Shown: in pieces, positions 9,315-63,489 of the stretch | How the letters are laid out: each line of letters starts with the position of its first letter | Position numbering within the stretch: position 1 is the first letter of the stretch | Source: Candidatus Nealsonbacteria bacterium | GTDB lineage: Bacteria; Patescibacteriota; Minisyncoccia; Minisyncoccales; JAUWAW01 | Direction of reading: 5' to 3' | Assembly (NCBI GenBank): GCA_030601865.1 | Contig: JAUWAW010000002.1 | Location: 7,410-71,409 of the forward strand | Length of the DNA: 64,000 nucleotides | Translations under genes and position numbers: made by a program | The notes under the pieces: model-generated | Told to the model about the DNA's origin: nothing | Database searches by the model: none | The model's input: only the letters and a program-made list of their open reading frames with translations

Positions 9315-9926
9315 TTACGCATTTTTCACTACAGCTATTTGGGGAACTCTAAATTTTTTTCTCAACCATACTTCTACTATCTCATAAGCTCCGAAAAAAA
9401 CAGTTGTATAAAATAGGTTCCCAATTAAAGTATTTTTGAAAAAAGGAAGAGCCATTAAATAGCATTGCCAGAGACCAGAAAAAGTTTTGGCATACCAGGG
9501 AGTAAAAACCCAAACAGCAAAATTGGTCAGGGCAAAAAATAAAAGAGCTGCCAAAAAAGCGCTGCCACCAATAGTGTACCATTTTTTATGCTTTTTCAGC
9601 CAGAACCCCAAAACCGCGAAAAGCAAAAAACTGCCGTAGACAAAAAACATTAAACTTAATTGGTAAGAACCAATAAACATATCAGAAATTACCATAGCTG
9701 CCATTGGTAAAATCAAGGCAGTTTTTCTGGAAAGATAAACTCCGGCAAACAAAGCAATGGCGGCAATAGGAGCAAAATTCGGCGGATGAGGCAAAAGCCG
9801 CAAACTGACCCCTACGACAATAAACAGCAAAACAATAACAAACTTTACCCCGTTAAATCCGCCAAAGGCGGTGCGGCAAAGCCGCAATTTAACAGGGTTT
9901 ATGATTTTTTCTTTTTGTGAAAACAT
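9315..9926 (-). CDS. DUF6580-like polytopic membrane protein (putative vitamin/B12-related transporter component)
   Basis: LRLLPHPPNFAPIAAIALFAGVYL motif and about 6 TM helices. It lies downstream of the cobalamin riboswitch and the DUF4430 gene. The N-terminal 25 aa are encoded by a repeat copy (9848-9897). Confidence 0.6.
   Translation of the reverse strand: MFSQKEKIINPVKLRLCRTAFGGFNGVKFVIVLLFIVVGVSLRLLPHPPNFAPIAAIALFAGVYLSRKTALILPMAAMVISDMFIGSYQLSLMFFVYGSFLLFAVLGFWLKKHKKWYTIGGSAFLAALLFFALTNFAVWVFTPWYAKTFSGLWQCYLMALPFFKNTLIGNLFYTTVFFGAYEIVEVWLRKKFRVPQIAVVKNA
9848..9897. repeat. Three-way-junction repeat, copy A1 (inside a CDS)
   Basis: CCCCGTTAAAT | CCGCCaaaGGCGG | TGCGGCaaaGCCGCA | ATTTAACAGGG. 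Read through as NPVKLRLCRTAFGGFNGV. Confidence 0.7.
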
Positions 9927-9931
9927 TTTTA

Positions 9932-10035
9932 ATCACCAAGATACAAGATACAATAACCAAACAAATTTCAATAATCAATCACCAAAAGATTTGGTTATTG
10001 GTGTTTGGTTATTGTTTGTTTCTTGTTTCTTGGTT
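9932..10035. repeat. Long imperfect hairpin, copy B1
   Basis: The 5' arm ATCACCAAGATACAAGATACAATAACCAAACA... is mirrored by ...TGTTTGGTTATTGTTTGTTTCTTGTTTCTTGGT. Homologous to 63347-63471. Confidence 0.7.
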
Positions 10036-10503: not shown

Positions 10504-10699
10504 AAAAAATCCCGCTTCAAGCGAGATAGGATGACCCTACTCTTTACTCGAAGAGAATTAGGTTAAAATTTTTATGGCGGCATTCTGGCTTTTTACCCAG
10601 TTAAATAATTTCGCCTCTGGCGAAATTGCTGCGGAGCAGCATTTAACCGGGTGAACAGTTGCGGTACAGCTCAGGAATTACACCTGATTTCTCACCATT
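10504..10699 (-). promoter_or_regulatory. Cobalamin (B12) riboswitch with terminator expression platform
   Basis: The minus-strand RNA reads GAGAAAUCAGGUGUAAUUCCUGAGCUGUACCGCAACUGU (core GGUG..AAUUCC..GCNG..CCGCNACUGU). B12 box AAGCCAGAAUGCCGCC (plus coords 10576-10590). Terminal CUCGCUUGAAGCGGG + UUUUUU (10504-10525). Confidence 0.65.
10596..10651. repeat. Three-way-junction repeat, copy A2 (embedded in the riboswitch variable region)
   Basis: CCCAGTTAAAT | AATTTCGCCtctGGCGAAATT | GCTGCggaGCAGC | ATTTAACCGGG. Differs from copy A3 at only 3 positions. Confidence 0.75.
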
Positions 10700-20841: not shown

Positions 20842-22526
20842 AGAAAATTCTATTAGGTAATGAGGCGATTGTCAGGGGTGCTCTGGAAGCAGGGGTCAAT
20901 TTTGTTTCTACTTATCCTGGCACACCGGCTTCAGAGATTGGCAATACTTTTTACAAAATCGCCAAAGAAGCTGGGGTTTACCCCCACACCAAACGGGGGC
21001 AAGGCGCCAAAATTGACGAAGTCAGCCCCCGTTCTGGTGTGGGGGTCTATTTTGAATTTTCAACCAATGAAAAAGTGGCTTTGGAAGCTGGGATAGGAGC
21101 CAGTTTTTCCGGTCTTAAAACCTTAGTGGCCATGAAGCATTTTGGCCTTAATGTGGCCTCTGATAGTTTAATGCCTTTTTGTTATACGGGCAGCAAGGGA
21201 CCAACTGTAATTGTCGTAGCTGATGATCCTAACTGCTGGAGTTCAGCTCAATCAGAGCAAAACTCAAGGGCTTATTCTTATTTAGCCCACATTCCTACTT
21301 TAGAACCCTCTGACCCTCAGGAGTGCAAGGATTTCATTAAATTGGCCTTTGAAATTTCTGAAAAATTTAACCTGCCTATCTTAATCAGATTAACTACCCG
21401 CGTCAGCCACCAACGCGCCCCCGTTAAACTCGGCAAACTATCGGGAAGCCATCCCGATAAAGCAAGGTTTGTCAAAGAGCCACAAAGGTTTGTCACTATG
21501 CCGCCCCGAGTTCTGGAAATGAAAAAAGAACTTTTTAAAAAAATAGAAAAAATAAAAGAATTTTCCGAAAAAACCTTTATCAATAAAATAAGTTTGTTGA
21601 CATCGGATGTCAACAAACAAAAGACCGGCATCATCACTTCAGGAGTTTCTTATTTGTATGTAATGGAGGCATTGGAAGAATTAAAAATAGATTTGCCGGT
21701 TTTGAAACTGGGATTCTTTTATCCTCTGTCAGAAAAGAAAATTAAAGATTTTATTAAAAATCTTAAAAAGGTTCTGACAGTTGAAGAATTAGAACCATAT
21801 CTTGAAAAGGAAATAACAGCTTTAGCTAAATCTGTAAATCCTGGACTACAAATCTATGGCAAAGCTCTTTTGCCTGAGGTCGGAGAGTTGAAACCTGACC
21901 ATGTAGTTGCAGCTTTAGCTACTGTGCTTAAAACTCACGATCGTAGAGTTTTAGCACAGCGGGCTGATTTGCCCAAGTTTCCAAAACGTTTGCCAAATCT
22001 ATGTCCTGGTTGCCCTTACTGGCTTGTTTTTGGTGCAGCAAAGAAAGCAGTCGATTTTAAGAAAGTAATCTTTGGCGGTGACATTGGCTGCTATATGTTA
22101 GCTGGCTTGCCACCTCACAATATCCAGGATTATCTTTCTTGCATGGGTTCTTCTATTGGTATAGCTCATGGAATCAAGAAAGCTACCGCCGGGCAACAAA
22201 AACTTATTGCTTTTATTGGCGATTCCACTTTTTTCCATGCGGGCATCCCTGCTTTAATCAACACCGTCTTTAACAAGTCAAACCCCTTAATTATTGTGAT
22301 GGATAACCAAACCATGGCTATGACCGGCCACCAACCTCACCCCGGCGCGCCAGCCAAGCCAGATGGAATAAAAATTGAGAATATTGTCAAAGCCTGCGGC
22401 GTTAAAAATCTAAAAGTGATTGACCCCATCAAACAAAAAGAATTAATAAAAACAATTAAAGAATTTTTAAACAAAAAACAGGTCTCGGTAATTATTGCCC
22501 GAAGACCCTGTATATTTGTAAAATGA
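20838..22526 (+). CDS. iorA: Indolepyruvate:ferredoxin oxidoreductase alpha subunit (TPP-binding)
   Basis: N-terminal GNEAIVRGALEAGVNFVSTYPGTPASEI; CPGCPYW; TPP motif GDSTFFHAG. 4-nt overlap with iorB. Two in-frame palindromic inserts. Confidence 0.8.
   Translation: MKKILLGNEAIVRGALEAGVNFVSTYPGTPASEIGNTFYKIAKEAGVYPHTKRGQGAKIDEVSPRSGVGVYFEFSTNEKVALEAGIGASFSGLKTLVAMKHFGLNVASDSLMPFCYTGSKGPTVIVVADDPNCWSSAQSEQNSRAYSYLAHIPTLEPSDPQECKDFIKLAFEISEKFNLPILIRLTTRVSHQRAPVKLGKLSGSHPDKARFVKEPQRFVTMPPRVLEMKKELFKKIEKIKEFSEKTFINKISLLTSDVNKQKTGIITSGVSYLYVMEALEELKIDLPVLKLGFFYPLSEKKIKDFIKNLKKVLTVEELEPYLEKEITALAKSVNPGLQIYGKALLPEVGELKPDHVVAALATVLKTHDRRVLAQRADLPKFPKRLPNLCPGCPYWLVFGAAKKAVDFKKVIFGGDIGCYMLAGLPPHNIQDYLSCMGSSIGIAHGIKKATAGQQKLIAFIGDSTFFHAGIPALINTVFNKSNPLIIVMDNQTMAMTGHQPHPGAPAKPDGIKIENIVKACGVKNLKVIDPIKQKELIKTIKEFLNKKQVSVIIARRPCIFVK
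20981..21045. repeat. CCCCCACACC stem-loop element, copy D1, in frame in iorA
   Basis: 20-bp stem CCCCCACACCAAACGGGGGC / GCCCCCGTTCTGGTGTGGGGG (one bulge) with a 24-nt loop. Translated as PHTKRGQGAKIDEVSPRSGVG. Confidence 0.8.
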
Positions 22527-23224
22527 TGAATAAAACATTCAATATGGTAATTGTGGGCACCGGGGGGCAAGGAGTGATTACGGTTTTGCGGATTTTGGCT
22601 GAAGTAGCCCTTATTGAGGGCTATGATGTCAAAACTTCAGAACTCCACGGCCTCAGCCAAAGAGGGGGCTCGGTTGAGGTTCATATTAAATTTGGCAACA
22701 AAATACACTCTCCCCTGGTAGCTCAAGGCAAAGCCGACTTAATCTTGGGCTTAGAAATGCAGGAATGCTTGAAATCTTGCTATTTTGTTCACCCCCACAC
22801 CAAACGAGAACAAGATGCCAAGGGCACCAAAATTGACAAGGTCAGTTCTCGTTATGGTGTGGGGGCAAACTCAAAAACAAGTTTTTTAATCAATGATTAT
22901 CTTATCCCCATACTTTCCTGCCCGCCAGAGCCTTCGGCTCAAGCCGATGGCAGGCGGGTTCAAAAACCCTGGCCAAAAAACAAAATTCTAAAGACCTTGA
23001 AAAATTGGACAAAAGATATTACTCTAACTCCAGCAGCAAAAATCTGTGAAAAAGAATTGGGCACAAAGGTAGTTGTTGGAGTCTATCTATTAAGCTTGGC
23101 TGCTTTCAAAAAACTGGTACCAATTAAACCTGCCTCAATTCTTAAAGCAATGAAAAAAGTCTTGCCCTCAAAATATCTTGAATTAAACAAAAAAACCTTT
23201 AATTTAGCGAGAAAAAATGATTAA
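22523..23224 (+). CDS. iorB: Indolepyruvate oxidoreductase beta subunit
   Basis: VGTGGQGVITVLRILAEVALIEGYDVKTSELHGLSQRGGSV is the IorB/gamma-domain pattern. Two in-frame repeat inserts. Confidence 0.75.
   Translation: MMNKTFNMVIVGTGGQGVITVLRILAEVALIEGYDVKTSELHGLSQRGGSVEVHIKFGNKIHSPLVAQGKADLILGLEMQECLKSCYFVHPHTKREQDAKGTKIDKVSSRYGVGANSKTSFLINDYLIPILSCPPEPSAQADGRRVQKPWPKNKILKTLKNWTKDITLTPAAKICEKELGTKVVVGVYLLSLAAFKKLVPIKPASILKAMKKVLPSKYLELNKKTFNLARKND
22792..22865. repeat. CCCCCACACC stem-loop element, copy D2, in frame in iorB
   Basis: Stem CCCCCACACCAAACGAGAAC / GTTCTCGTTATGGTGTGGGGG with a 33-nt loop. Translated as PHTKREQDAKGTKIDKVSSRYGVG. Confidence 0.8.
22917..22958. repeat. GC-rich hairpin element, copy E3, in frame in iorB
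   Basis: CCTGCCCGCC ... GGCAGGCGGG with inner GAGCCttcGGCTC. Translated as CPPEPSAQADGRRV. Confidence 0.55.
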
Positions 23225-26120: not shown

Positions 26121-26177
26121 ACCCAGTTAAATAATTTCGCCTTTGGCGAAATTGCTGTGAAGCAGCATTTAACCGGG
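26121..26177. repeat. Three-way-junction repeat, copy A3
   Basis: ACCCAGTTAAAT | AATTTCGCCtttGGCGAAATT | GCTGTgaaGCAGC | ATTTAACCGGGT. Confidence 0.75.
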
Positions 26178-26236
26178 TTTAACCTGTTTAACATAATCAT
26201 TTTGTATTCTAAACTTATTCTACTTTTTTGTCAAAA

Positions 26237-51909: not shown

Positions 51910-51945
51910 TGTGTCAAAATCCTGCGATCGCAGGATTTTGACACA
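51910..51945. repeat. Perfect 36-nt palindrome centred on GCGATCGC, copy H7
   Basis: TGTGTCAAAATCCTGCGATCGCAGGATTTTGACACA. Identical to 59186-59221, including the flanks TTT...GTTTT. Confidence 0.85.
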
Positions 51946-54334: not shown

Positions 54335-55471
54335 TTAACTGGCTTTTATGGGCATAATTATGTAAATATAACTAGGATCACCTACTGGTTTAAGGGCGGC
54401 TGGTCCCTCCTCCCCATTTAACTCAAAACTCACCTCTGGGCTTTGGATATTAATTAGACCATCTATTAAAAACCTCCAATTAAAAGATACTTCGGTCATT
54501 TTTCCTTTTGTTTTTCCCTGAACTAAAGATTGGTTTTCCCCAATTTCTGAGCTTTGACTAAAGATTTCCATCTCTTCTTGCGAAGGGTCAATTTTTACTT
54601 TAACCTCATTAATTCTTCCACTAAAAAGACTGGCTGTTTTTAAATGGTTTAAGAATTTTTCTCTAGGTAGAACAATCTGGGTTTCATATTTCTTGGGAAT
54701 AATTTCTTGATAATTCGGGTAATCCCCTTCAATTAAACGGGAAATGAGTTGTAATTGAGGTTGAGAACTCTCTTTAGTCCTAAATTCAAACATAATTTGG
54801 TTGGGGGTTAAATAAATTTTAAGTTTTCCTTTTTTTTCAGAACCAATATTAATCAACTCCTGCACTATTTTCTGGGGAAGAATTAAAGACTGCCCTTGAA
54901 AATTAGATTTTTCAGAACCCGCTTCAAGTAAAAGTGTTTTTTCTGCCAACCTAAAACTATCAGTAGAGGCAAGCTGAACTTGGTTTTTCTGGAAAGCTAA
55001 ATAAATCCCGGAAATTTCTGGCCGAGTTTGATTTAAACTTGCATACTTGTGTACCTGAGCCAATCCCTGACAGAAAGGAGCGCTATTTAATTCAAGAAAT
55101 TCTTTTTCTTCTATTTTAGGGATAATCGGAAACTCATCTGGGTTAAACCCTTTAATTTTGGTTTTAAAACTTTCACCCTTAATATGTAAAATATTATTTA
55201 TTGACTCAAAGGAAATTTTACTTTCTGGTAAAGAACCAATAAAACTCGCTAAAACCTTGGCTGGAATAACTATTTTACCCTCTTTGTCTATTTTAGCTAA
55301 GACCCAGTAGCGAATTCCTATTTCTAGATCAGTAGCAGATAAATTAAGAAAATTACCCTTGGCTGATAATAAGATATTATTAAGAATAGGCAAAGAAAGA
55401 GATTTGGAAACTACTCTTTCTGTAAACCCTAAACCTTTATTTAAATTTTCTTTTAATACTAATAATTTCAT
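54335..55471 (-). CDS. dnaN: DNA polymerase III beta sliding clamp
   Basis: MKLLVLKENLNKGL...SLPILNNILL start, three-domain length, position downstream of dnaA. Confidence 0.9.
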   Translation of the reverse strand: MKLLVLKENLNKGLGFTERVVSKSLSLPILNNILLSAKGNFLNLSATDLEIGIRYWVLAKIDKEGKIVIPAKVLASFIGSLPESKISFESINNILHIKGESFKTKIKGFNPDEFPIIPKIEEKEFLELNSAPFCQGLAQVHKYASLNQTRPEISGIYLAFQKNQVQLASTDSFRLAEKTLLLEAGSEKSNFQGQSLILPQKIVQELINIGSEKKGKLKIYLTPNQIMFEFRTKESSQPQLQLISRLIEGDYPNYQEIIPKKYETQIVLPREKFLNHLKTASLFSGRINEVKVKIDPSQEEMEIFSQSSEIGENQSLVQGKTKGKMTEVSFNWRFLIDGLINIQSPEVSFELNGEEGPAALKPVGDPSYIYIIMPIKAS

Positions 55472-55611
55472 AGTATTTATTATTGTTATTATTATTGGTG
55501 TTAATTATTAATGATTTACCTTTATTTTAAGGGGTAGGAAACAGTTAATTAGCTCTGTTAATAAATTCTGATTTTTCTTTGGATTATAAAAATATTTAAT
55601 TTATCCACAAT
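55472..55611. other. Candidate oriC segment (dnaA-dnaN intergenic, AT-rich, one perfect DnaA box)
   Basis: TTATCCACA at 55601-55609. The remainder is very AT-rich (ATTATTGTTATTATTATTGG...). The dnaA-rpmH spacer has only weak boxes. Confidence 0.4.
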
Positions 55612-56979
55612 TTATAGGGGGTCTAATGAACTATAAATCCTCTGTTTTATATAATTAATTTCTTCAACCAAACTTTCAGATTGTTTTAGTTCTTTTACTA
55701 TCTTCTCATAGGCATAGATGGCAGTAGTATGGTCTTTGCCGCCCAATCTTCTGCCAATAGAAGGATAAGAACTCTTTAAGTTTTCTCTTAATAAATACAT
55801 GGCAATTTGACGAGGCCTGACCACTTCTTTTTTTCTTGAAGAACTTAAAAGGTCGCTTTGTTTTATGTCATAAAATTCAGACACCACCTGAATCACCTTT
55901 TTATAATTTGCTACCTTAGTCGAACCGGTAATTAAATTTTTAAAAAGAGTTTGGACAATCTGAATGTCAGGGGATTGGCTGTTTAGTTTTTGATAAGCAG
56001 CCAATCTATTTAAAGCGCCTTCCAATTGCCGAATATTGTTTTGTACCACAGAAGCAATATATTCTAAGACTTTTTCTGAAAAATCTAATCTTCTCTCTTG
56101 AGTTTTTGTTTTAAGAATGGCCATCCTTGTTTCAAAATCAGGAGAGCCGATGTCAGCAATCATTCCTCCTTCGAAGCGAGATTTCAACCTTTCTTCAAGG
56201 GCCGGGATAGCTTTGGGAGGTCGATCTGAGGAAAGAGCTATTTGCTTGTTTTTTTCATAAAGGGCATTAAAGATATGGAAAAATTCTTCCTGACTTTTAT
56301 CTTTGCCAGCCAAAAACTGAACATCGTCAATAATTAAAACATCGGCTTCCCTGTATTTTATCTTAAAATCTTCAATACTATGATTTTTAATAGCGGCCAC
56401 CAAACCTGAAATAAATTTTTCAGAAGGAATATATTTTATTTTCTTTGAGGGAAAATTCTTCACTACCTCATTGCCAATAGCTTGTAAAAGATGGGTTTTG
56501 CCCAATCCAACACCCCCATAAACAAATAAGGGATTATAGACCACTCCTGGATTTTTAGAGATGGCCCAACCGGCCGCTTGAGCTAATTCATTAAAGGGTC
56601 CCACCACAAAATTCTCAAAGGTATAACGGGGATTGAGATTGGTCTCTGTGTTTATTTGGAGTTCCTGAAACTCAAGCTGGTTATTAATAGAAACGGCTGG
56701 TAAAGAAGTAGGGGCTTCTGCAATTTCAAGACTAGGTTGAGATGTTGTATATTGGATTTCTTTGATTTGGTTGTCTAAACTATGCAGGATTTTTAAAATA
56801 ATTCTATCATATTTATTTTGTAACCACTCCTGAGAGAAATGGCTGGGCACAGAAACAATCACCTTCTTTTTGTTTCTGGAAATAATGTGCGTATCCTTAA
56901 ACCAGGTAGCGAAACTAGCTCGAGAGATATTAAATTGGATTTGGGCAAGAACTGCTTCCCAAAGTTCTTTCTTGTTCAT
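55612..56979 (-). CDS. dnaA: Chromosomal replication initiator DnaA
   Basis: Walker A GGVGLGKTHLL, box VII, and the C-terminal DNA-binding IGRRLGGKDHTTAIYAYEKI. Confidence 0.95.
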   Translation of the reverse strand: MNKKELWEAVLAQIQFNISRASFATWFKDTHIISRNKKKVIVSVPSHFSQEWLQNKYDRIILKILHSLDNQIKEIQYTTSQPSLEIAEAPTSLPAVSINNQLEFQELQINTETNLNPRYTFENFVVGPFNELAQAAGWAISKNPGVVYNPLFVYGGVGLGKTHLLQAIGNEVVKNFPSKKIKYIPSEKFISGLVAAIKNHSIEDFKIKYREADVLIIDDVQFLAGKDKSQEEFFHIFNALYEKNKQIALSSDRPPKAIPALEERLKSRFEGGMIADIGSPDFETRMAILKTKTQERRLDFSEKVLEYIASVVQNNIRQLEGALNRLAAYQKLNSQSPDIQIVQTLFKNLITGSTKVANYKKVIQVVSEFYDIKQSDLLSSSRKKEVVRPRQIAMYLLRENLKSSYPSIGRRLGGKDHTTAIYAYEKIVKELKQSESLVEEINYIKQRIYSSLDPL

Positions 56980-57000
56980 AATAAGTTTATTTTATCATAT

Positions 57001-57033
57001 ATTCGTATGGCGTATTCGTAACGCTATTTACAT
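57001..57033. repeat. 33-nt conserved block upstream of dnaA (copy F6)
   Basis: ATTCGTATGGCGTATTCGTAACGCTATTTACAT. 30/33 identical to 60787-60819. Confidence 0.7.
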
Positions 57034-57137
57034 AATAACAGAAAATCAAGAATAGCCCAAATCCCTCATTTTTGTTAATAACCTGGGGACAAGATGTGGA
57101 ATTTGACTGTATTGCGATTCGGTGTTATATTTAATCT

Positions 57138-57272
57138 ATGTCCATTACTTACCAACCCAAAAGAAAAAAAAGAAAACGCACCCATGGTTTTAGAAAAAGA
57201 AGTAAAACAAAACCAGGCAGAAAGATTTTAACAAGAAGACGTGAGAAAGGCCGCCACAAGCTTACAGTTTAA
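57138..57272 (+). CDS. rpmH: 50S ribosomal protein L34 (not in ORF track, 44 aa)
   Basis: My translation: [44 protein letters not shown]. Canonical L34, upstream of rnpA. Confidence 0.92.
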
Positions 57273-57295
57273 GGTAGAAGTTTAAACATCACATT

Positions 57296-57646
57296 ATGCT
57301 GCCCAAGGAAAATAGATTAAAAAAGAAAAAAGATTTTGAAAATGTTTTTAAAAAAGGAAAAGGATTTAAAGAAAAATTTTTGTTTTTGAAGATAAGAAAA
57401 AATGAATTAAATGTTAACCGATTTGGTTTTGCGGTCAGCTTAAAAGTTTCAAAGAAAGCAGTAGTTCGTAATAAACTTAAAAGGCAACTACGAGAAATAG
57501 TAAAGGCAAAATTGCCTCAAGTAAAACCTGGAATAGATGGGATAATAGTTGTTCTTCCGGGCCTGGAAGATAAAAATTTCCAGCAAATAGAAGAAATAGC
57601 TAATAAATTGTTCAAAAAAGCAAAAATAATTAACAATACGACATAA
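57296..57646 (+). CDS. rnpA: Ribonuclease P protein component
   Basis: LPKENRLKKKKDFENVFKKGK and the RNR-like motif KKAVVRNKLKRQLRE. Confidence 0.88.
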   Translation: MLPKENRLKKKKDFENVFKKGKGFKEKFLFLKIRKNELNVNRFGFAVSLKVSKKAVVRNKLKRQLREIVKAKLPQVKPGIDGIIVVLPGLEDKNFQQIEEIANKLFKKAKIINNTT

Positions 57647-57684
57647 ACTATAATACTATATAGTATTGTAGTTTATGTGAATAA

Positions 57685-57894
57685 ATGATTAAAACAATTA
57701 TTTTAAAAAGCCTAAAATTATATCAAATTATTATTTCTCCTATTTTTGGAAAGCATTGCCGTTTTTATCCCAGTTGTTCAGAGTATTCTTACCAGGCAAT
57801 TAAGAAATACGGAGCATTAAGAGGATTTTGGAAAGGATTGAGAAGAATAAAGAGATGCCATCCTTTTAATAAGGGGGGAATAGATTTCCCTTGA
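57685..57894 (+). CDS. yidD: Membrane protein insertion efficiency factor YidD
   Basis: YQIIISPIFGKHCRFYPSCSEYSYQAIKKYG signature. Confidence 0.88.
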   Translation: MIKTIILKSLKLYQIIISPIFGKHCRFYPSCSEYSYQAIKKYGALRGFWKGLRRIKRCHPFNKGGIDFP

Positions 57895-57898
57895 GAAT

Positions 57899-58618
57899 AT
57901 GAATGTTTTCATTGCCATTTTCAATACGGTTCTTTACCAGCCATTATTTAATGTCCTGGTATTGTTCTATGAATACATTCCCGGGCATGATTTTGGAGTC
58001 GCGGTGATTGCTTTGACTTTTTTGATACGGATTCTAACCTATCCCTTGGGCATCAAAGCCATTAAATCCCAAAAAGCTATCTCTGAAATTCAGCCAAAAC
58101 TAAATGAAATTAAGGAAAAATACAAAGATGATAAAGCAGCGCAAGCTAAAGCCACCATGGAGGTTTACCAAAAAGAAAAAATCAACCCTTTTTCTGGTTG
58201 CCTGCCTTTATTGATTCAATTCCCGGTCTTGCTGGCTCTTTTTCGGGTATTTTGGAGGGGATTTTCTGCAGAACAGATGGTTTATCTTTATAGTTTTGTC
58301 CCCCATCCCGGCCAGATTGACCCTAGTTTTTTGGGCGTGATAGACCTTAGTCACCCCTTTGCTGTTTTAGCGGTTTTAGCCGGAGTTTGTCAGTTTATTC
58401 AAACAAAAGTGATGACACCTAAACAAAAGGTCCAAAAGAAAAAGGGAGGTGATTTCTCTTCTATGTTCCAAAAACAAATGCTTTATTTCTTCCCAGTTTT
58501 TACTGTTTTAATTGTCTGGCGACTTCCTTCAGCTATTGCTCTTTATTGGATAACTACTTCTTTGTTTTCCATCGGCCAGCAACTTTTGGTTCTGCGAACC
58601 AAAAGTCAAGAACCTTAG
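57899..58618 (+). CDS. yidC: Membrane protein insertase YidC (short, Gram-positive-like form)
   Basis: LTYPLGIKAIKSQKAISEIQPKLNEIKEKYKDD, INPFSGCLPLLIQFPVLLALF. Confidence 0.88.
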   Translation: MNVFIAIFNTVLYQPLFNVLVLFYEYIPGHDFGVAVIALTFLIRILTYPLGIKAIKSQKAISEIQPKLNEIKEKYKDDKAAQAKATMEVYQKEKINPFSGCLPLLIQFPVLLALFRVFWRGFSAEQMVYLYSFVPHPGQIDPSFLGVIDLSHPFAVLAVLAGVCQFIQTKVMTPKQKVQKKKGGDFSSMFQKQMLYFFPVFTVLIVWRLPSAIALYWITTSLFSIGQQLLVLRTKSQEP

Positions 58619-58645
58619 AACCTAAGAACCTAAAAATATAAAAAT

Positions 58646-59107
58646 ATGCTTAACAGAGATAGTTTAAAACAAATTAAGAAAATAGTGGAGGAGTTTTTTG
58701 ACAAGATGGACATTCCAGTGGAAATTCAGGTGTTGTCTCTAGAAGAAAAGACCCTTCCCATAAATCTGAAAGTAGAAGAACCTCGCTTTTTAATTGGAGA
58801 AAAAGGCTGCACCCTAACCGACATCCAGCGGCTTTTAGCAGTTATCTTAAAGAGAAAAATTGCCGGACCCTTTTATCTTAATCTTGATATCAATGATTAC
58901 AAAAAGAAAAAAGCCGAATATTTAAGAGAAACCGCCCGTTCAATGGCTGACGAGGTAGCTTTAACCAAAAAAGAAAGGCAGCTGCCGCCAATGTTGGCTG
59001 CGGAAAGAAGAATTATCCATTTAGAATTGGCTGACAGAGCAGATGTGGCCACCGAAAGCATGGGCCAAGACCCCATAAGAAGAGTCGTCATCCGGCCGTA
59101 TCCCTAA
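58646..59107 (+). CDS. jag: Jag/KhpB-type RNA-binding protein (KH + R3H)
   Basis: Position after yidC; the C-terminal R3H region PMLAAERRIIHLEL. Confidence 0.8.
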   Translation: MLNRDSLKQIKKIVEEFFDKMDIPVEIQVLSLEEKTLPINLKVEEPRFLIGEKGCTLTDIQRLLAVILKRKIAGPFYLNLDINDYKKKKAEYLRETARSMADEVALTKKERQLPPMLAAERRIIHLELADRADVATESMGQDPIRRVVIRPYP

Positions 59108-59185: not shown

Positions 59186-59221
59186 TGTGTCAAAATCCTG
59201 CGATCGCAGGATTTTGACACA
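59186..59221. repeat. Perfect 36-nt palindrome centred on GCGATCGC, copy H8
   Basis: Identical to 51910-51945. Confidence 0.85.
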
Positions 59222-60840: not shown

Positions 60841-60960
60841 GTTAACCCTGTCAAATAAAAATTCTCCGAATTTTTACGGCTCGCCCTGTTAAATAATTTG
60901 CTTTGCAAATTAAAATCGGAGATTTTATTTAACGGGGCAAGCCGTATTTGACGGGGTTAA
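60841..60960. repeat. Nested three-way-junction repeats (copy A4 inside another copy)
   Basis: Outer copy: GTTAACCCTGTCAAATA | AAAATTCtccGAATTTT | TACGGCT[..]AGCCGTA | TATTTGACGGGGTTAA. Inner copy (60883-60938): GCCCTGTTAAAT | AATTTGCtttGCAAATT | AAAATCggaGATTTT | ATTTAACGGGGC. Confidence 0.75.
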
Positions 60961-63344
60961 TCTGGGCAAGCTCCTCCTTCTACTGTTGGCCCTATTATAG
61001 GATGTACTATAATAGCAATATGGTCTTTCTCCGCCCAAGTAGTCCCGCCGCACCTGTGAATGGTATCCGTTAAGGCACTAATTTTATGTTGGTCTTTAAG
61101 CTCTACAGCATAAGAGAAAGCTACTTCTCTCCAGGGCTTAATAAGGGTACATATCTTTCCATAATGCCAGGAGCCACACTCCCGGACACACTTATCAGGG
61201 TCATTTGACTCACCGCAATTAACTTCCGGATTTTGACAGGGTGGCAATTTACATTTGTCATAGTCACACCCGTCAGTGCCTCCTCTATCTGGAAGGTTCG
61301 GGTCAGAGATTGAACTAATGGGACCAGGATTTATAGGTGCACCTTTAACTGGGTCTGTGTAAATGCACTCAATAACGTCTTTTAGAGCTTGAGTAGCATC
61401 ACTCCATTGTTTTGAAGTTTTAATAAATCCTGCGAATACCCCTGCCTTGTCGCAATCCGGAATTTTATCTGTATCGCAGACCATAGGCCAGGGAGGACCG
61501 CTTGGTTTTTCGGTACAAACCCCTTGGCAACAATAACCAATCGCGCAAGCACCGGTTAGAATAGAACAGTTATTATAAGCGCTACAAGGATTATCTTTAC
61601 AAATTCCAGTGCATGTTGTAGGCACCACTGGTCCTCCTGTTACCTCTCCACAGACAAAGAAATCAATTGGCCCACATTCTTTTATTTTTTGTATTAAATC
61701 CGGTGTTGTTGGGCAGCAGGGAAAGATATCGTAGCCGGGACAATGATCCGGGTTTCCAGTCCATAGATATCCAGTTTCTGTATTATCATATTCTAACATA
61801 GCTTGTATATCCTCGCAAAGATAAAGACCTTGGCCCGTAGAAGCTCTTTTTGTTTCATCTACTATACCGGCTAAAGTAGTATAGTGTTGTCTTAATCCGT
61901 CAGGACACAAAACATCAGAACATATTTCTTCTGGCTTTGGCCCAGCAATTTGCTTTGCCTTTTGTTTTTTCTCGGCAAAGCCATTAGGGAAAGGAGCAGA
62001 GGAATTTTCAGGTTGTTCACAGGGTGCCCCACATTCCCAGGGAGGAATTAGGCCATCGCCTTTGGTGTGGCAGCCCTGAAGATCAGGCAAGCACCAGAAC
62101 TTTGTTATTCTTTCATTTAGTTCTGCTTTAAGAGGAGGAAGAGGAGGAGAGCAAGAGCAATTGACATTTTTACATTGACAGCCATCAGCTGCTGCAGCTA
62201 ATTTATCAATGGCATCATATGCTTGTTTAAGTGGCTCTATGGGAAAGGTAATTTTTTCATATTTTGTCTCTTCTCCCTCTGCCCAGATGCAATAGAAATC
62301 ACGTCCCTCTTCGCAGTCAATTGGCCCGAGCCAATCTTGGACACTCTTGGCATATGAGCAGGGGAAAAGTATTTTTCCTTCATCAGCTATACACTCGTTT
62401 ATATCTTCTTTTGCCTGGTCTAAGGCTAATTTTAATTTATCTGCTGTTAATAAACCCTCGTTAACAACTGTTTCAACTTTGTCTATTGCTTTATTGATCC
62501 CGTTTTCTGCATTTGGTTCTGGGCAGGTTTCTTCTCCGGTATCGCAGAAAGGCGGAGTGCAGTTCCCTGGAGGGTCTGGAAAGGATCGTGATATTGGAAT
62601 TATTATTGGTTCGGTGCCTCCTGGACAACCCAGATCAGTACAAGGTTGGAAACAGTAAAGCCCTATAAATGGGAGAGTTGCCCACGGTTTACAGCAACCG
62701 TCATAAAGACATGGGCCCCATGCTGGTATATTTATTACCATCTCGCCCTCCACTGCAAATTGATATTGACAATTATGTCCTTTGCAGTATTGCCGTGCAT
62801 CGCGCTGTTTGGCGAATTTGGCAAAACTTGTCATTGTTCCTACGACATTTTTTGTTTTAAGAAATTTTATGGTGTCGTCAATTGCCTGGTCTAAATCAAT
62901 TGAGGTAATAACTTTTGGTATTGGCGGAGTAGGAGGTTCTGGCGGTTCTGGTTCTGGAGCTTTGACCACTTCTTCTATGGTTGGTTCTGTTAATTCTACT
63001 AATTCAGGACCAATGGTATTGAGAATTAAAAAAGAAGCCAGCAAAAGCACCAAGCCAATTAAAGCATTGAAGACCTGGCTTTTAGCATCACCCATTTTGC
63101 TGGGGTTGCCCATTGAGGTTAAATAACGAAATCCGCCCACGACAATCATAATGAAAGCAGCTGCTCCGGCGATGACCAGAAACATATTAAAAAGAGCGCC
63201 AACCAAATCTTTCAAAGACATATCTGTTTCAAGGGGCAACCAATCAGGATAGTCAAGTTGGAGAGCGTAGACAGAAGAAGTAAAAGAAAGCCCGAGTAGA
63301 ACGAGAAATGTTATTTGGATTGAATATCTTGAGAGATTAGACAC
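60957..63344 (-). CDS. Pilin-module fusion protein 2: signal peptide + VirB2/TrbC-like pilin module + Pro-rich linker + about 650-aa very Cys-rich ectodomain
   Basis: TSSVYALQLDYPDW...LVGALFNMFLVIAGAAAFIMIVVGGFRYLTSMGNPSKMGDAKSQVFNALIGLVLLLASFLILNTIGPELV, then PEPEPPEPPTPPIP, then dozens of Cys. I prefer the GTG at 63344 (VSNLSRYSIQITFLVLLG, parallel to MTQFSKQLIKTTFIILLG). The track TTG start at 63383 lies in repeat B2. Confidence 0.6.
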   Translation of the reverse strand: MSNLSRYSIQITFLVLLGLSFTSSVYALQLDYPDWLPLETDMSLKDLVGALFNMFLVIAGAAAFIMIVVGGFRYLTSMGNPSKMGDAKSQVFNALIGLVLLLASFLILNTIGPELVELTEPTIEEVVKAPEPEPPEPPTPPIPKVITSIDLDQAIDDTIKFLKTKNVVGTMTSFAKFAKQRDARQYCKGHNCQYQFAVEGEMVINIPAWGPCLYDGCCKPWATLPFIGLYCFQPCTDLGCPGGTEPIIIPISRSFPDPPGNCTPPFCDTGEETCPEPNAENGINKAIDKVETVVNEGLLTADKLKLALDQAKEDINECIADEGKILFPCSYAKSVQDWLGPIDCEEGRDFYCIWAEGEETKYEKITFPIEPLKQAYDAIDKLAAAADGCQCKNVNCSCSPPLPPLKAELNERITKFWCLPDLQGCHTKGDGLIPPWECGAPCEQPENSSAPFPNGFAEKKQKAKQIAGPKPEEICSDVLCPDGLRQHYTTLAGIVDETKRASTGQGLYLCEDIQAMLEYDNTETGYLWTGNPDHCPGYDIFPCCPTTPDLIQKIKECGPIDFFVCGEVTGGPVVPTTCTGICKDNPCSAYNNCSILTGACAIGYCCQGVCTEKPSGPPWPMVCDTDKIPDCDKAGVFAGFIKTSKQWSDATQALKDVIECIYTDPVKGAPINPGPISSISDPNLPDRGGTDGCDYDKCKLPPCQNPEVNCGESNDPDKCVRECGSWHYGKICTLIKPWREVAFSYAVELKDQHKISALTDTIHRCGGTTWAEKDHIAIIVHPIIGPTVEGGACPD

Positions 63345-63346
63345 AG

Positions 63347-63471
63347 AATAATCACCAAGATACAAGAAACAATAACCAAACAAATCTCAATAACCAATAA
63401 CCAAACAGTTTGGTGATTGGTTATTGAAGATTGGTTATTGTTTGTATCTTGTTTCTTGGTGATTGGTTATT
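63347..63471. repeat. Long imperfect hairpin, copy B2
   Basis: AATAATCACCAAGATACAAGAAACAATAACCAAACAAATCTCAATAACCAATAACCAAAC-ag-GTTTGGTGATTGGTTATTGAAGATTGGTTATTGTTTGTATCTTGTTTCTTGGTGATTGGTTATT. Confidence 0.75.
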
Positions 63472-63489
63472 CTTTTGCGGAGCAAAAGG

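Follow-up and report, generated by a model that had tools for sequence, protein, structure and literature searches.

The 120-base gap between two pilin-like genes (60841-60960) in the window, the whole 64,000-nucleotide stretch of Nealsonbacteria DNA that was analyzed, is a composite of two members of one repeat family. An outer T-shaped palindromic repeat (c5) holds a complete inner copy (c4) of its own kind. Our confidence is high that the composite is a true nested pair of family members, moderate that the nesting arose by insertion and low for any specific enzymology. We propose, with a probability of roughly 0.55, that the repeats form a family of T-shaped DNA palindromes that is or was mobile in trans, and that one copy in the window either inserted into the loop of another or reached it by exchange.

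Anatomy of the nested composite

The composite (60841-60960) reads GTTA-ACCCTGTCAAAT / AAAAATTC-TCC-GAATTTTT / ACGGC-TC-[GCCCTGTTAAAT / AATTTGC-TTT-GCAAATT / AAAATC-GGA-GATTTT / ATTTAACGGGGC]-AA-GCCGT / ATTTGACGGGGT-TAA, where the outermost brackets enclose the inner copy. The outer arms, GTTAACCCTGTCAAATA at 60841-60857 and TATTTGACGGGGTTAA at 60945-60960, pair across 120 nucleotides, as an earlier note on this DNA had described. Sequence and family consensus place the arm cores ACCCTGTCAAAT at 60845-60856 and ATTTGACGGGGT at 60946-60957, and the flanks TTA (60842-60844) and TAA (60958-60960) extend the stem. Inside this stem lie a long hairpin, AAAAATTC-TCC-GAATTTTT (hairpin 1, 60857-60875), and a short hairpin (hairpin 2) that is formed by ACGGC (60876-60880) and its partner GCCGT (60941-60945). 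The earlier version of the short hairpin, TACGGCT...AGCCGTA, adds one flanking pair on each side. The loop of the short hairpin is replaced by the segment 60881-60940, which consists of the inner element core GCCCTGTTAAAT ... ATTTAACGGGGC (60883-60938) and the two-nucleotide flanks TC and AA. The inner core contains two hairpins of its own, AATTTGC-TTT-GCAAATT and AAAATC-GGA-GATTTT. Because the inner copy sits exactly in the apical loop, the inner stem stacks on the host hairpin. The intact-triloop version of the short hairpin, ACGGC-TTT-GCCGT, is present in two other loci, L237 and L075. The predicted fold of the composite reaches -55.9 kcal/mol on the plus strand (z = -10.1) and -50.4 kcal/mol on the minus strand (z = -8.5), and on either strand 0 of 200 shuffles are as good.

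Both flanking genes carry a T4SS-pilin domain. A cyanobacterial origin of the DNA, considered in view of CGATCG palindromes and heptamer repeats, was rejected because the genes of the window, including T4SS-pilin fusions and ComEC, are typical of Patescibacteria. The upstream pilin-fusion gene (ORF 60957-63383, minus strand), whose product has 795 amino acids in the protein database, ends in the outer arm. Its TAA stop codon (60957-60959) covers the last base of the 3' arm core and two flank bases, in agreement with the earlier note.

Both parts of the composite are recognized as family members. A covariance model built from eight copies of other genomes, with no window sequence included, finds the inner copy with 41.6 bits (E~3e-9). 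Across the window, only c1, c2, c3 and the inner copy are credible hits of this model; the outer copy is missed because the 60-nt insert makes it too long. When the inner 60 nt were swapped for TTT, the outer copy aligned over its full length to a sequence profile made from 150 family members, with 28.6 bits, compared with 25.2 bits for the inner copy and 3.6 bits for the best of 200 shuffles. Since the inner segment can be aligned to the other copies under a covariance model, the original observation of a complete second element within the second inner hairpin stands.

A collapsed repeat in a metagenome-assembled genome could also account for the nested structure. An independent short-read unitig (L001) stops 38 nt before the element and L022 has an N gap at a nested site, and these are places at which such repeats break short-read assemblies. 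However, at least 120 contigs from independent assemblies show the same architecture, with unique flanks that are intact, and an assembly artefact is thus hardly credible.

A family of DNA palindromes shared across phyla

The family follows the formula TTY-ACCCNGTTAAAT-[hairpin][hairpin]-ATTTAACNGGGT-RAA, with the consensus TTY-ACCC-N-GTTAAAT, two abutting hairpins and ATTTAAC-N-GGGT-RAA. Each non-coding unit of ~50-65 bp combines a conserved 15-bp stem with two short hairpins of variable sequence. The stem, ACCC / GTTAAAT, is almost invariant across phyla, is fully paired save for one variable pair and provides terminal inverted repeats of 12-15 bp. Exactly two abutting hairpins are formed in 96 of 137 copies, and these two-hairpin copies have zero unpaired junction nucleotides. 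The loops are mostly 3 nt long (GAA, AAA, TTT or TTC). In 150 aligned matches, 95.4% of cells are paired, compared with 75.9% in shuffles, and changes on both sides occur in all 14 hairpin pairs (747 cells versus 194 in shuffles). The fold is kept by double, compensatory changes. A hammerhead or other ribozyme was rejected as an identity for the element, given that it has no conserved unpaired bases and zero unpaired junction nucleotides. A XerCD/dif-like site was also considered through TGTTAAAT, which we take to match the E. coli XerD arm in its outer 8 nt, and was dismissed because the half-sites face the wrong way and no dif-like partner turned up in any locus.

The search pattern ACCCNGTYAAAT-N22-52-ATTTRACNGGGT matches at least 120 stretches in species-representative genomes, for which a rough estimate of the chance expectation is a handful. 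Among the matches listed, most belong to Patescibacteria. Omnitrophota, WOR-3 and Thermodesulfobacteriota (Desulfobacterota) each contribute several contigs, including a 4.1-Mb Desulfatiglandales contig, and single listed matches come from Cloacimonadota, Calditrichaceae, Bacteroidota and others. Viral contigs yielded one match to the pattern, and phage and plasmid collections yielded none. Rfam holds no such family: only tRNAs reach the gathering score in the window, and permissive thresholds around the element return only generic hairpin matches far below threshold. Literature searches by sequence strings and by concept retrieved no published description of the family, and the one paper that contains both arm strings has them as a primer.

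Candidate Phyla Radiation bacteria, which are uncultured and have small genomes, are generally portrayed as having few repeats and little mobile DNA. Here, a compact structured repeat is dense in such a small genome, its 15-bp stem recurs in unrelated phyla from similar habitats, and it builds larger palindromes recursively out of itself. The fixed stem sequence provides a simple probe for horizontal exchange among uncultured lineages, and the repeats can overlap stop codons or gene starts. If mobile, they would be among the smallest mobile units known and a tractable system for studying how folded single-stranded DNA is recognized and integrated.

The window contains five copies in 64 kb, and the arm motif occurs nine times against 0.83 expected. 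In addition to the nested pair, the covariance model detects c1 (9847-9898, 44 bits), c2 (10595-10652, 79 bits, flanks TTT...GAA) and c3 (26121-26178, 69.5 bits). All window copies lie between co-directional genes. c1 falls inside the 5' end of the longest ORF at 9315-9926, upstream of the DUF6580 domain start (residue 27), and thus either the start codon may be misannotated or translation may run through the repeat. c2 and c3 are 15 kb apart and differ at only 3 of 58 nt, with identity ending at TTTACCC / GGGT.

c3 lies downstream of rtcB, and a family copy is found at the same position in L196, where rtcB is only 66% identical to the window rtcB. Remnants of 39-nt mini-units follow both copies; the one behind c3 is a degenerate half-unit at 26179-26195. 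The shared position beside such divergent rtcB genes indicates that some copies are old and retained, and it points to long persistence or host use of the rtcB-side copies rather than recent movement. As a separate observation, the 39-nt mini-units (CCCNGTTAAAT, a 13-nt hairpin, ATTTAACNGGG and TTTA) form tandem arrays in L142 (7-220), L144 (49-200), L196 (1753-1893) and L169, and some of these arrays end in a full two-hairpin copy.

Does the fold belong to the DNA or to a transcript? A structured RNA of the operon transcript, such as a terminator, a processing site or an mRNA stabilizer of the kind that REP sequences can be, would make the nested form simply a larger version of the same device. 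The location of the window copies between co-directional genes, the very stable fold and the position after rtcB that is kept in L196 agree with such a role. However, both strands fold equally well. Relative to the neighboring genes, the sense strand has 62 G·U pairs and the antisense strand has 66, the mean difference in folding energy is 0.02 kcal/mol, and G·U pairs are rare within hairpins. The order of the short and long hairpins is random with respect to gene direction (17:19) and to flank orientation (21:19). Moreover, the conserved bases of the family reside in the paired stem and not in the loops or junction, Rfam gives no match, and the sense strand has no U-tract after the element. 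An RNA-level function is therefore very unlikely. Equal folding of both strands, the rarity of G·U pairs and random arm order point to a DNA-level palindrome rather than a transcript-level structure. For what had been called a three-way-junction element, 'DNA palindrome' is a more apt description than 'RNA junction'.

The DNA palindrome carries a strand mark at its ends. At the base pair just outside ACCC/GGGT, T is opposite G in 45 copies and C is opposite A in 35, so 80 of 135 copies carry TTT...GAA flanks or the complementary form; Watson-Crick combinations account for only 12. The T/G and C/A states are reverse complements of each other. Such a distribution cannot come from independent mutation of the two sides, and exactly one mismatch is thus the rule and marks the strand. 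The T..G strand is antisense to the flanking co-directional genes in a ratio of 46:14 (p = 4e-5) and lies on the C-rich strand in a ratio of 50:21. Gene direction and GC skew are confounded in these loci, of which only two are informative for separating replication from transcription bias. In the window, the T..G strand is the leading-strand template in both c2 and c4, although c4 lies among head-on genes; with n = 2 only, this hints that the strand bias is tied to replication. The direction of replication is read from the origin neighborhood at 54335-59107, where dnaN and dnaA are on the minus strand and rnpA, yidC and jag/KhpB are on the plus strand, and from the cumulative GC-skew minimum at ~56-60 kb. 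An origin at 54-59 kb with this skew minimum places the two large pilin-fusion genes head-on to replication.

The near-invariance of the stem across phyla, a flank orientation that tracks replication or transcription direction and the conserved position at rtcB would also be expected if the stem were the binding site of a conserved host protein, such as a nucleoid, replication or recombination factor, with copies kept by selection and nesting incidental. We consider this explanation improbable, given that a duplex binding site has no need of hairpin covariation and that copy content at homologous sites is swapped freely. We know of no candidate protein.

Nesting in other genomes and the case for mobility

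Nesting is not confined to the window. At least 120 metagenome stretches match a nested pattern of outer arm, inner arm and inner partner, and 52 distinct complete composites were parsed from these at least 120 metagenome loci. The inner copy occupies the apical loop in 23 composites and an arm position, in which it forms a whole arm beside the other hairpin of the host, in 25; four are ambiguous, and none lies within a stem. Placement at the apex or as an arm of the host copy is non-random. It could stem from the mechanism, or from the loss of all insertions that disrupt the host fold.

The inner copy of the window belongs to a subfamily that is found in several settings. Over 60 nt, it shares 96.7% identity with the inner copy of L229, the two interiors match at 32 of 32 positions, and the outer copy of L229 is different. 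The subfamily is free-standing in L033 and L048, and it also occurs inside differing outer copies, in both orientations and in either arm. The junction type of the window (a 5-bp GC stem, TCG[copy]CAA and the stem again) is shared with L133, L161, L240 and L185, and other inner copies are joined through CTG/CGA, through TTG/CGA or with no linker.

A direct comparison of an empty and a filled hairpin is provided by L233 and L240, which are homologous over ~250 nt, with ~98% identity on the downstream side of the element. The short hairpin is empty in L233 (GCTGC-AAA-GCAGC), and at the same place in L240 it is filled (GCCGC-TCG[57-nt copy]CAA-GCGGC) with the same junction as in the window. This pair supports insertion. 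The comparison with empty sites that the earlier note had called for thus succeeded for another family member. For the window locus itself, no empty site could be located: neither exact look-ups of the two pilin genes nor a homology search brought up close relatives of the flanking genes in the collections.

Alternatively, nesting may have occurred once, long ago, and the 120-nt composite may since have been copied or inherited as a unit, in which case it would be silent on local insertion. The junction and inner subfamily that L133, L161, L240, L185 and L229 have in common speak for a single ancient event. However, both hairpins vary from one outer copy to another, the inner copy appears in both orientations, in either arm and with varied junctions, and L233 and L240 represent the same outer copy without and with an inner copy. 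We therefore regard a single ancient nesting as unlikely.

The L233/L240 pair displays a second peculiarity. Between ~7950-8080 of L233 and 2040-2180 of L240, two compensatory double substitutions (GCTGC/GCAGC versus GCCGC/GCGGC and TTTTGCC/GGCAAAA versus TTTCGCC/GGCGAAA) fall within 60 nt, and the 75-nt flank is ~98% identical. Independent mutation plus selection can hardly account for paired changes at such a rate. Mirror symmetry is seen in two further pairs. L238 (simple) and L181 (composite, with the same interior) have homologous flanks and differ in two mirror-image segments that border the inner copy, one of 19 nt on its 5' side and one of 40 nt on its 3' side, and L133 and L205 differ symmetrically by 7 nt on each side. 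These differences suggest that one arm was copied from the other or that whole interiors were exchanged via the conserved arms, and simple insertion does not explain the L238/L181 pair.

Such observations raise the possibility that composites are built in place. Hairpin-templated synthesis or template switching could copy one arm from the other, which would keep stems perfect and add nested shells. The mirror-symmetric segments of L181 versus L238 and L133 versus L205, the clustered double changes of L233/L240 between nearly identical flanks and the random arm order relative to the flanks all fit this scheme. It nevertheless leaves unexplained why the same stem sequence and inner subfamilies occur at unrelated loci and in different phyla, and why near-identical copies such as c2 and c3 lie 15 kb apart. 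As a full account, building in place appears to be improbable.

The recurring self-nesting suggests that the repeats move or once moved. The argument of the earlier note from self-insertion to mobility gains from the separable inner copy, the free-standing subfamily, the L233/L240 pair and the c2/c3 similarity, and it is weakened by the mirror segments of L238 and L181. Its further claim of a preferred target inside the element's own structure found no support. Among loci chosen without regard to nesting, there is ~1 nested copy per ~135 simple copies, and the only nested one is that of the window. Because a few per cent of all intergenic DNA lies inside elements, this rate is no higher than random intergenic landing and gives no sign that self-insertion is preferred in frequency. 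Hairpin loops were also rejected as a general insertion target: complementarity between the two flanks of a free-standing copy does not extend past 3 nt, and these copies are thus not embedded in larger hairpins.

There is no sign of a fixed-offset target-site duplication: for every combination of offset and length, the excess over shuffled flanks is at most a few copies. In 28 of 135 copies, against ~5 expected, the flanks contain direct repeats of 7 nt or more, at variable offsets and often within local tandem repeats. Near-identical locus pairs contain three indels, none of which is a family element. Two indel sites of 45-52 nt, L163 (5513-5564) versus L221 and L236 (1064-1108) versus L227, consist of a single small hairpin or a pair of them and lack the conserved arms, in contigs that are otherwise 95-99% identical.

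The absence of a transposase or integrase from the window was upheld. Pfam scanning of 50 of the 62 window ORFs of at least 70 amino acids found no such domain, and all were housekeeping; the remaining ORFs were recognized by eye (NrdD, NrdG, RtcB and similar) or are very short. Beyond the window, no gene family is enriched beside 240 loci. The largest neighbor family covers 12 loci and is housekeeping. Among the same 240 loci, no long, potentially autonomous element carries the same arms.

We propose that copies of the T-shaped palindrome would spread in trans, by means of an enzyme encoded elsewhere or of host replication or repair functions. Movement would probably proceed via a folded single-stranded intermediate, either a hairpin or a cruciform, for which the conserved stem may serve as the recognized site. 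The single-stranded hairpin apices and the junctions of resident copies would offer permissive landing places, and between the inverted stem halves the two arms may trade places or turn around ('flip/flop').

A more far-reaching proposal, which we advance only tentatively, is that the elements are cross-phylum mobile DNA of a new class that exists and propagates as a folded T-shaped hairpin, with one stem half regenerated by hairpin-templated synthesis. Such a life cycle would explain why pairing is nearly perfect and 'compensatory' changes arise in one step, why the arms occur in flip/flop order, why a single T·G / C·A mismatch that marks the strand is obligatory at the base of the stem, and why nesting is mirror-symmetric. 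The mover could be an enzyme that has been linked to no repeat family so far, or the host replication and repair machinery.

Relation to known repeats and other palindromes of the window

By analogy, the family appears to work most like REP/REPIN sequences and the nested small dispersed repeats of Nostoc. Its cross-phylum conserved stem, perfect three-way junction, flip/flop arms, obligatory single mismatch and recursive self-nesting are unusual. The REP/BIME/REPIN sequences of Proteobacteria, which are moved by RAYT, a Y1 HUH transposase, are similarly short, non-coding intergenic palindromes that are present in many copies per genome and in operons. They also show orientation bias and no target duplication, and a folded single strand is presumed to be the form in which they work and spread. 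However, a REP is a single imperfect hairpin with a 5' GTAG-type guide tetranucleotide, is species-specific and is clustered around a RAYT gene, whereas the present family has a three-way junction, a stem shared across phyla and flanks of TTY / RAA rather than GTAG. No RAYT is found in the window, and no neighbor gene is enriched beside the 240 loci.

The small dispersed repeats SDR1-8 of Nostocaceae are reportedly very small structured repeats that nest within their own copies. They are said to lie within heptamer tandem repeats, with a fold backed by compensatory changes, and to be single hairpins of 21-27 nt that are limited to one cyanobacterial group and proposed to move through RNA. We know of no enzyme for them. 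The family described here differs in its 50-65 nt three-way junctions, its occurrence in Patescibacteria and other phyla and its DNA-level symmetry. Heptamer-like tandem units (AATAACC / AAACAAT) also exist in the window, at 63344-63477 and 9945-10020, where they form long imperfect palindromes beside gene starts, and tandem heptamers of a similar kind flank family copies in L029, L048 and L089.

MITEs such as Correia, RUP and Nezha resemble the family as short, non-autonomous elements that have terminal inverted repeats, are dispersed in intergenic regions and are sometimes nested. The nearly invariant arms of 12-15 bp qualify as terminal inverted repeats. The family nonetheless departs from MITEs in that it has no fixed-offset target-site duplication, no parent insertion sequence with the same ends among the 240 loci and an interior under strong structural constraint, which a MITE does not need. 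Eight WOR-3 loci (L054, L056, L060, L077, L082, L101, L111 and L114) contain the same conserved arms around a ~40-nt interior that has no hairpins and is mutually conserved. These copies are flanked by direct repeats, always of the same 9-mer ACGCAGATT, and look more like site-specific integration or a longer composite unit.

In integron attC sites, the folded single-strand structure sets the site, 7-bp boxes follow GTTRRRY / RYYYAAC, to which GTTAAAT / ATTTAAC of the family conform, and larger sites have a variable, sometimes branched tip. However, the family boxes are the inner part of the stem, an inverse position, and not outer recombination boxes. Extrahelical bases, an unpaired central spacer, cassette arrays and an integrase are all lacking, and the copies are set among core genes such as nrdG, rtcB and the pilin genes. 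An attC identity was rejected, as neither the polarity of the boxes nor the genomic context fits.

The T-shaped ITR hairpins of adeno-associated virus are the telomeres of a linear single-stranded viral genome, which undergoes rolling-hairpin replication by Rep. They share with the family a long sequence-specific stem, two small GC-rich arms, AAA/TTT triloops and the occurrence of the arms in either order ('flip' or 'flop'). The family, in contrast, consists of internal chromosomal repeats of bacteria, and the resemblance is a structural analogy for which no homology is claimed. PATEs derived from IS200/IS605 share the absence of target duplication, hairpins, a single-strand logic and a replication-related strand bias. 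The TTT that is conserved on one side, the strand bias and the lack of target duplication in the family are consistent with such a relationship. However, IS200/IS605-type elements, which insert 3' of a fixed tetra- or pentanucleotide, have ends that are not mutually inverted and subterminal hairpins of conserved sequence, whereas the family has inverted repeats as its ends and hairpins that vary freely. No TnpA was seen among the Pfam-scanned ORFs of the window.

The window contains other palindromic repeats. A second family, TT(T/C)ACCCCCACACCAAACG...CGTT.TGGTGTGGGGG, is found at 20977-21047 and 22789-22868, inside two pyruvate:ferredoxin oxidoreductase ORFs, and shares the TTYACCC start with the junction family. 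In the ORF at 22523-23224, the Pfam POR match stops at residue 83, near the 5' end of the inverted-repeat arm at 22772. These sequences look like in-frame palindromic insertions in coding genes, as in the Rickettsia palindromic elements. Finally, a 36-bp perfect palindrome, TGTGTCAAAATCCTGCGATCGCAGGATTTTGACACA, occurs twice downstream of genes, at 51910-51945 and 59186-59221, and is another dispersed hairpin repeat.
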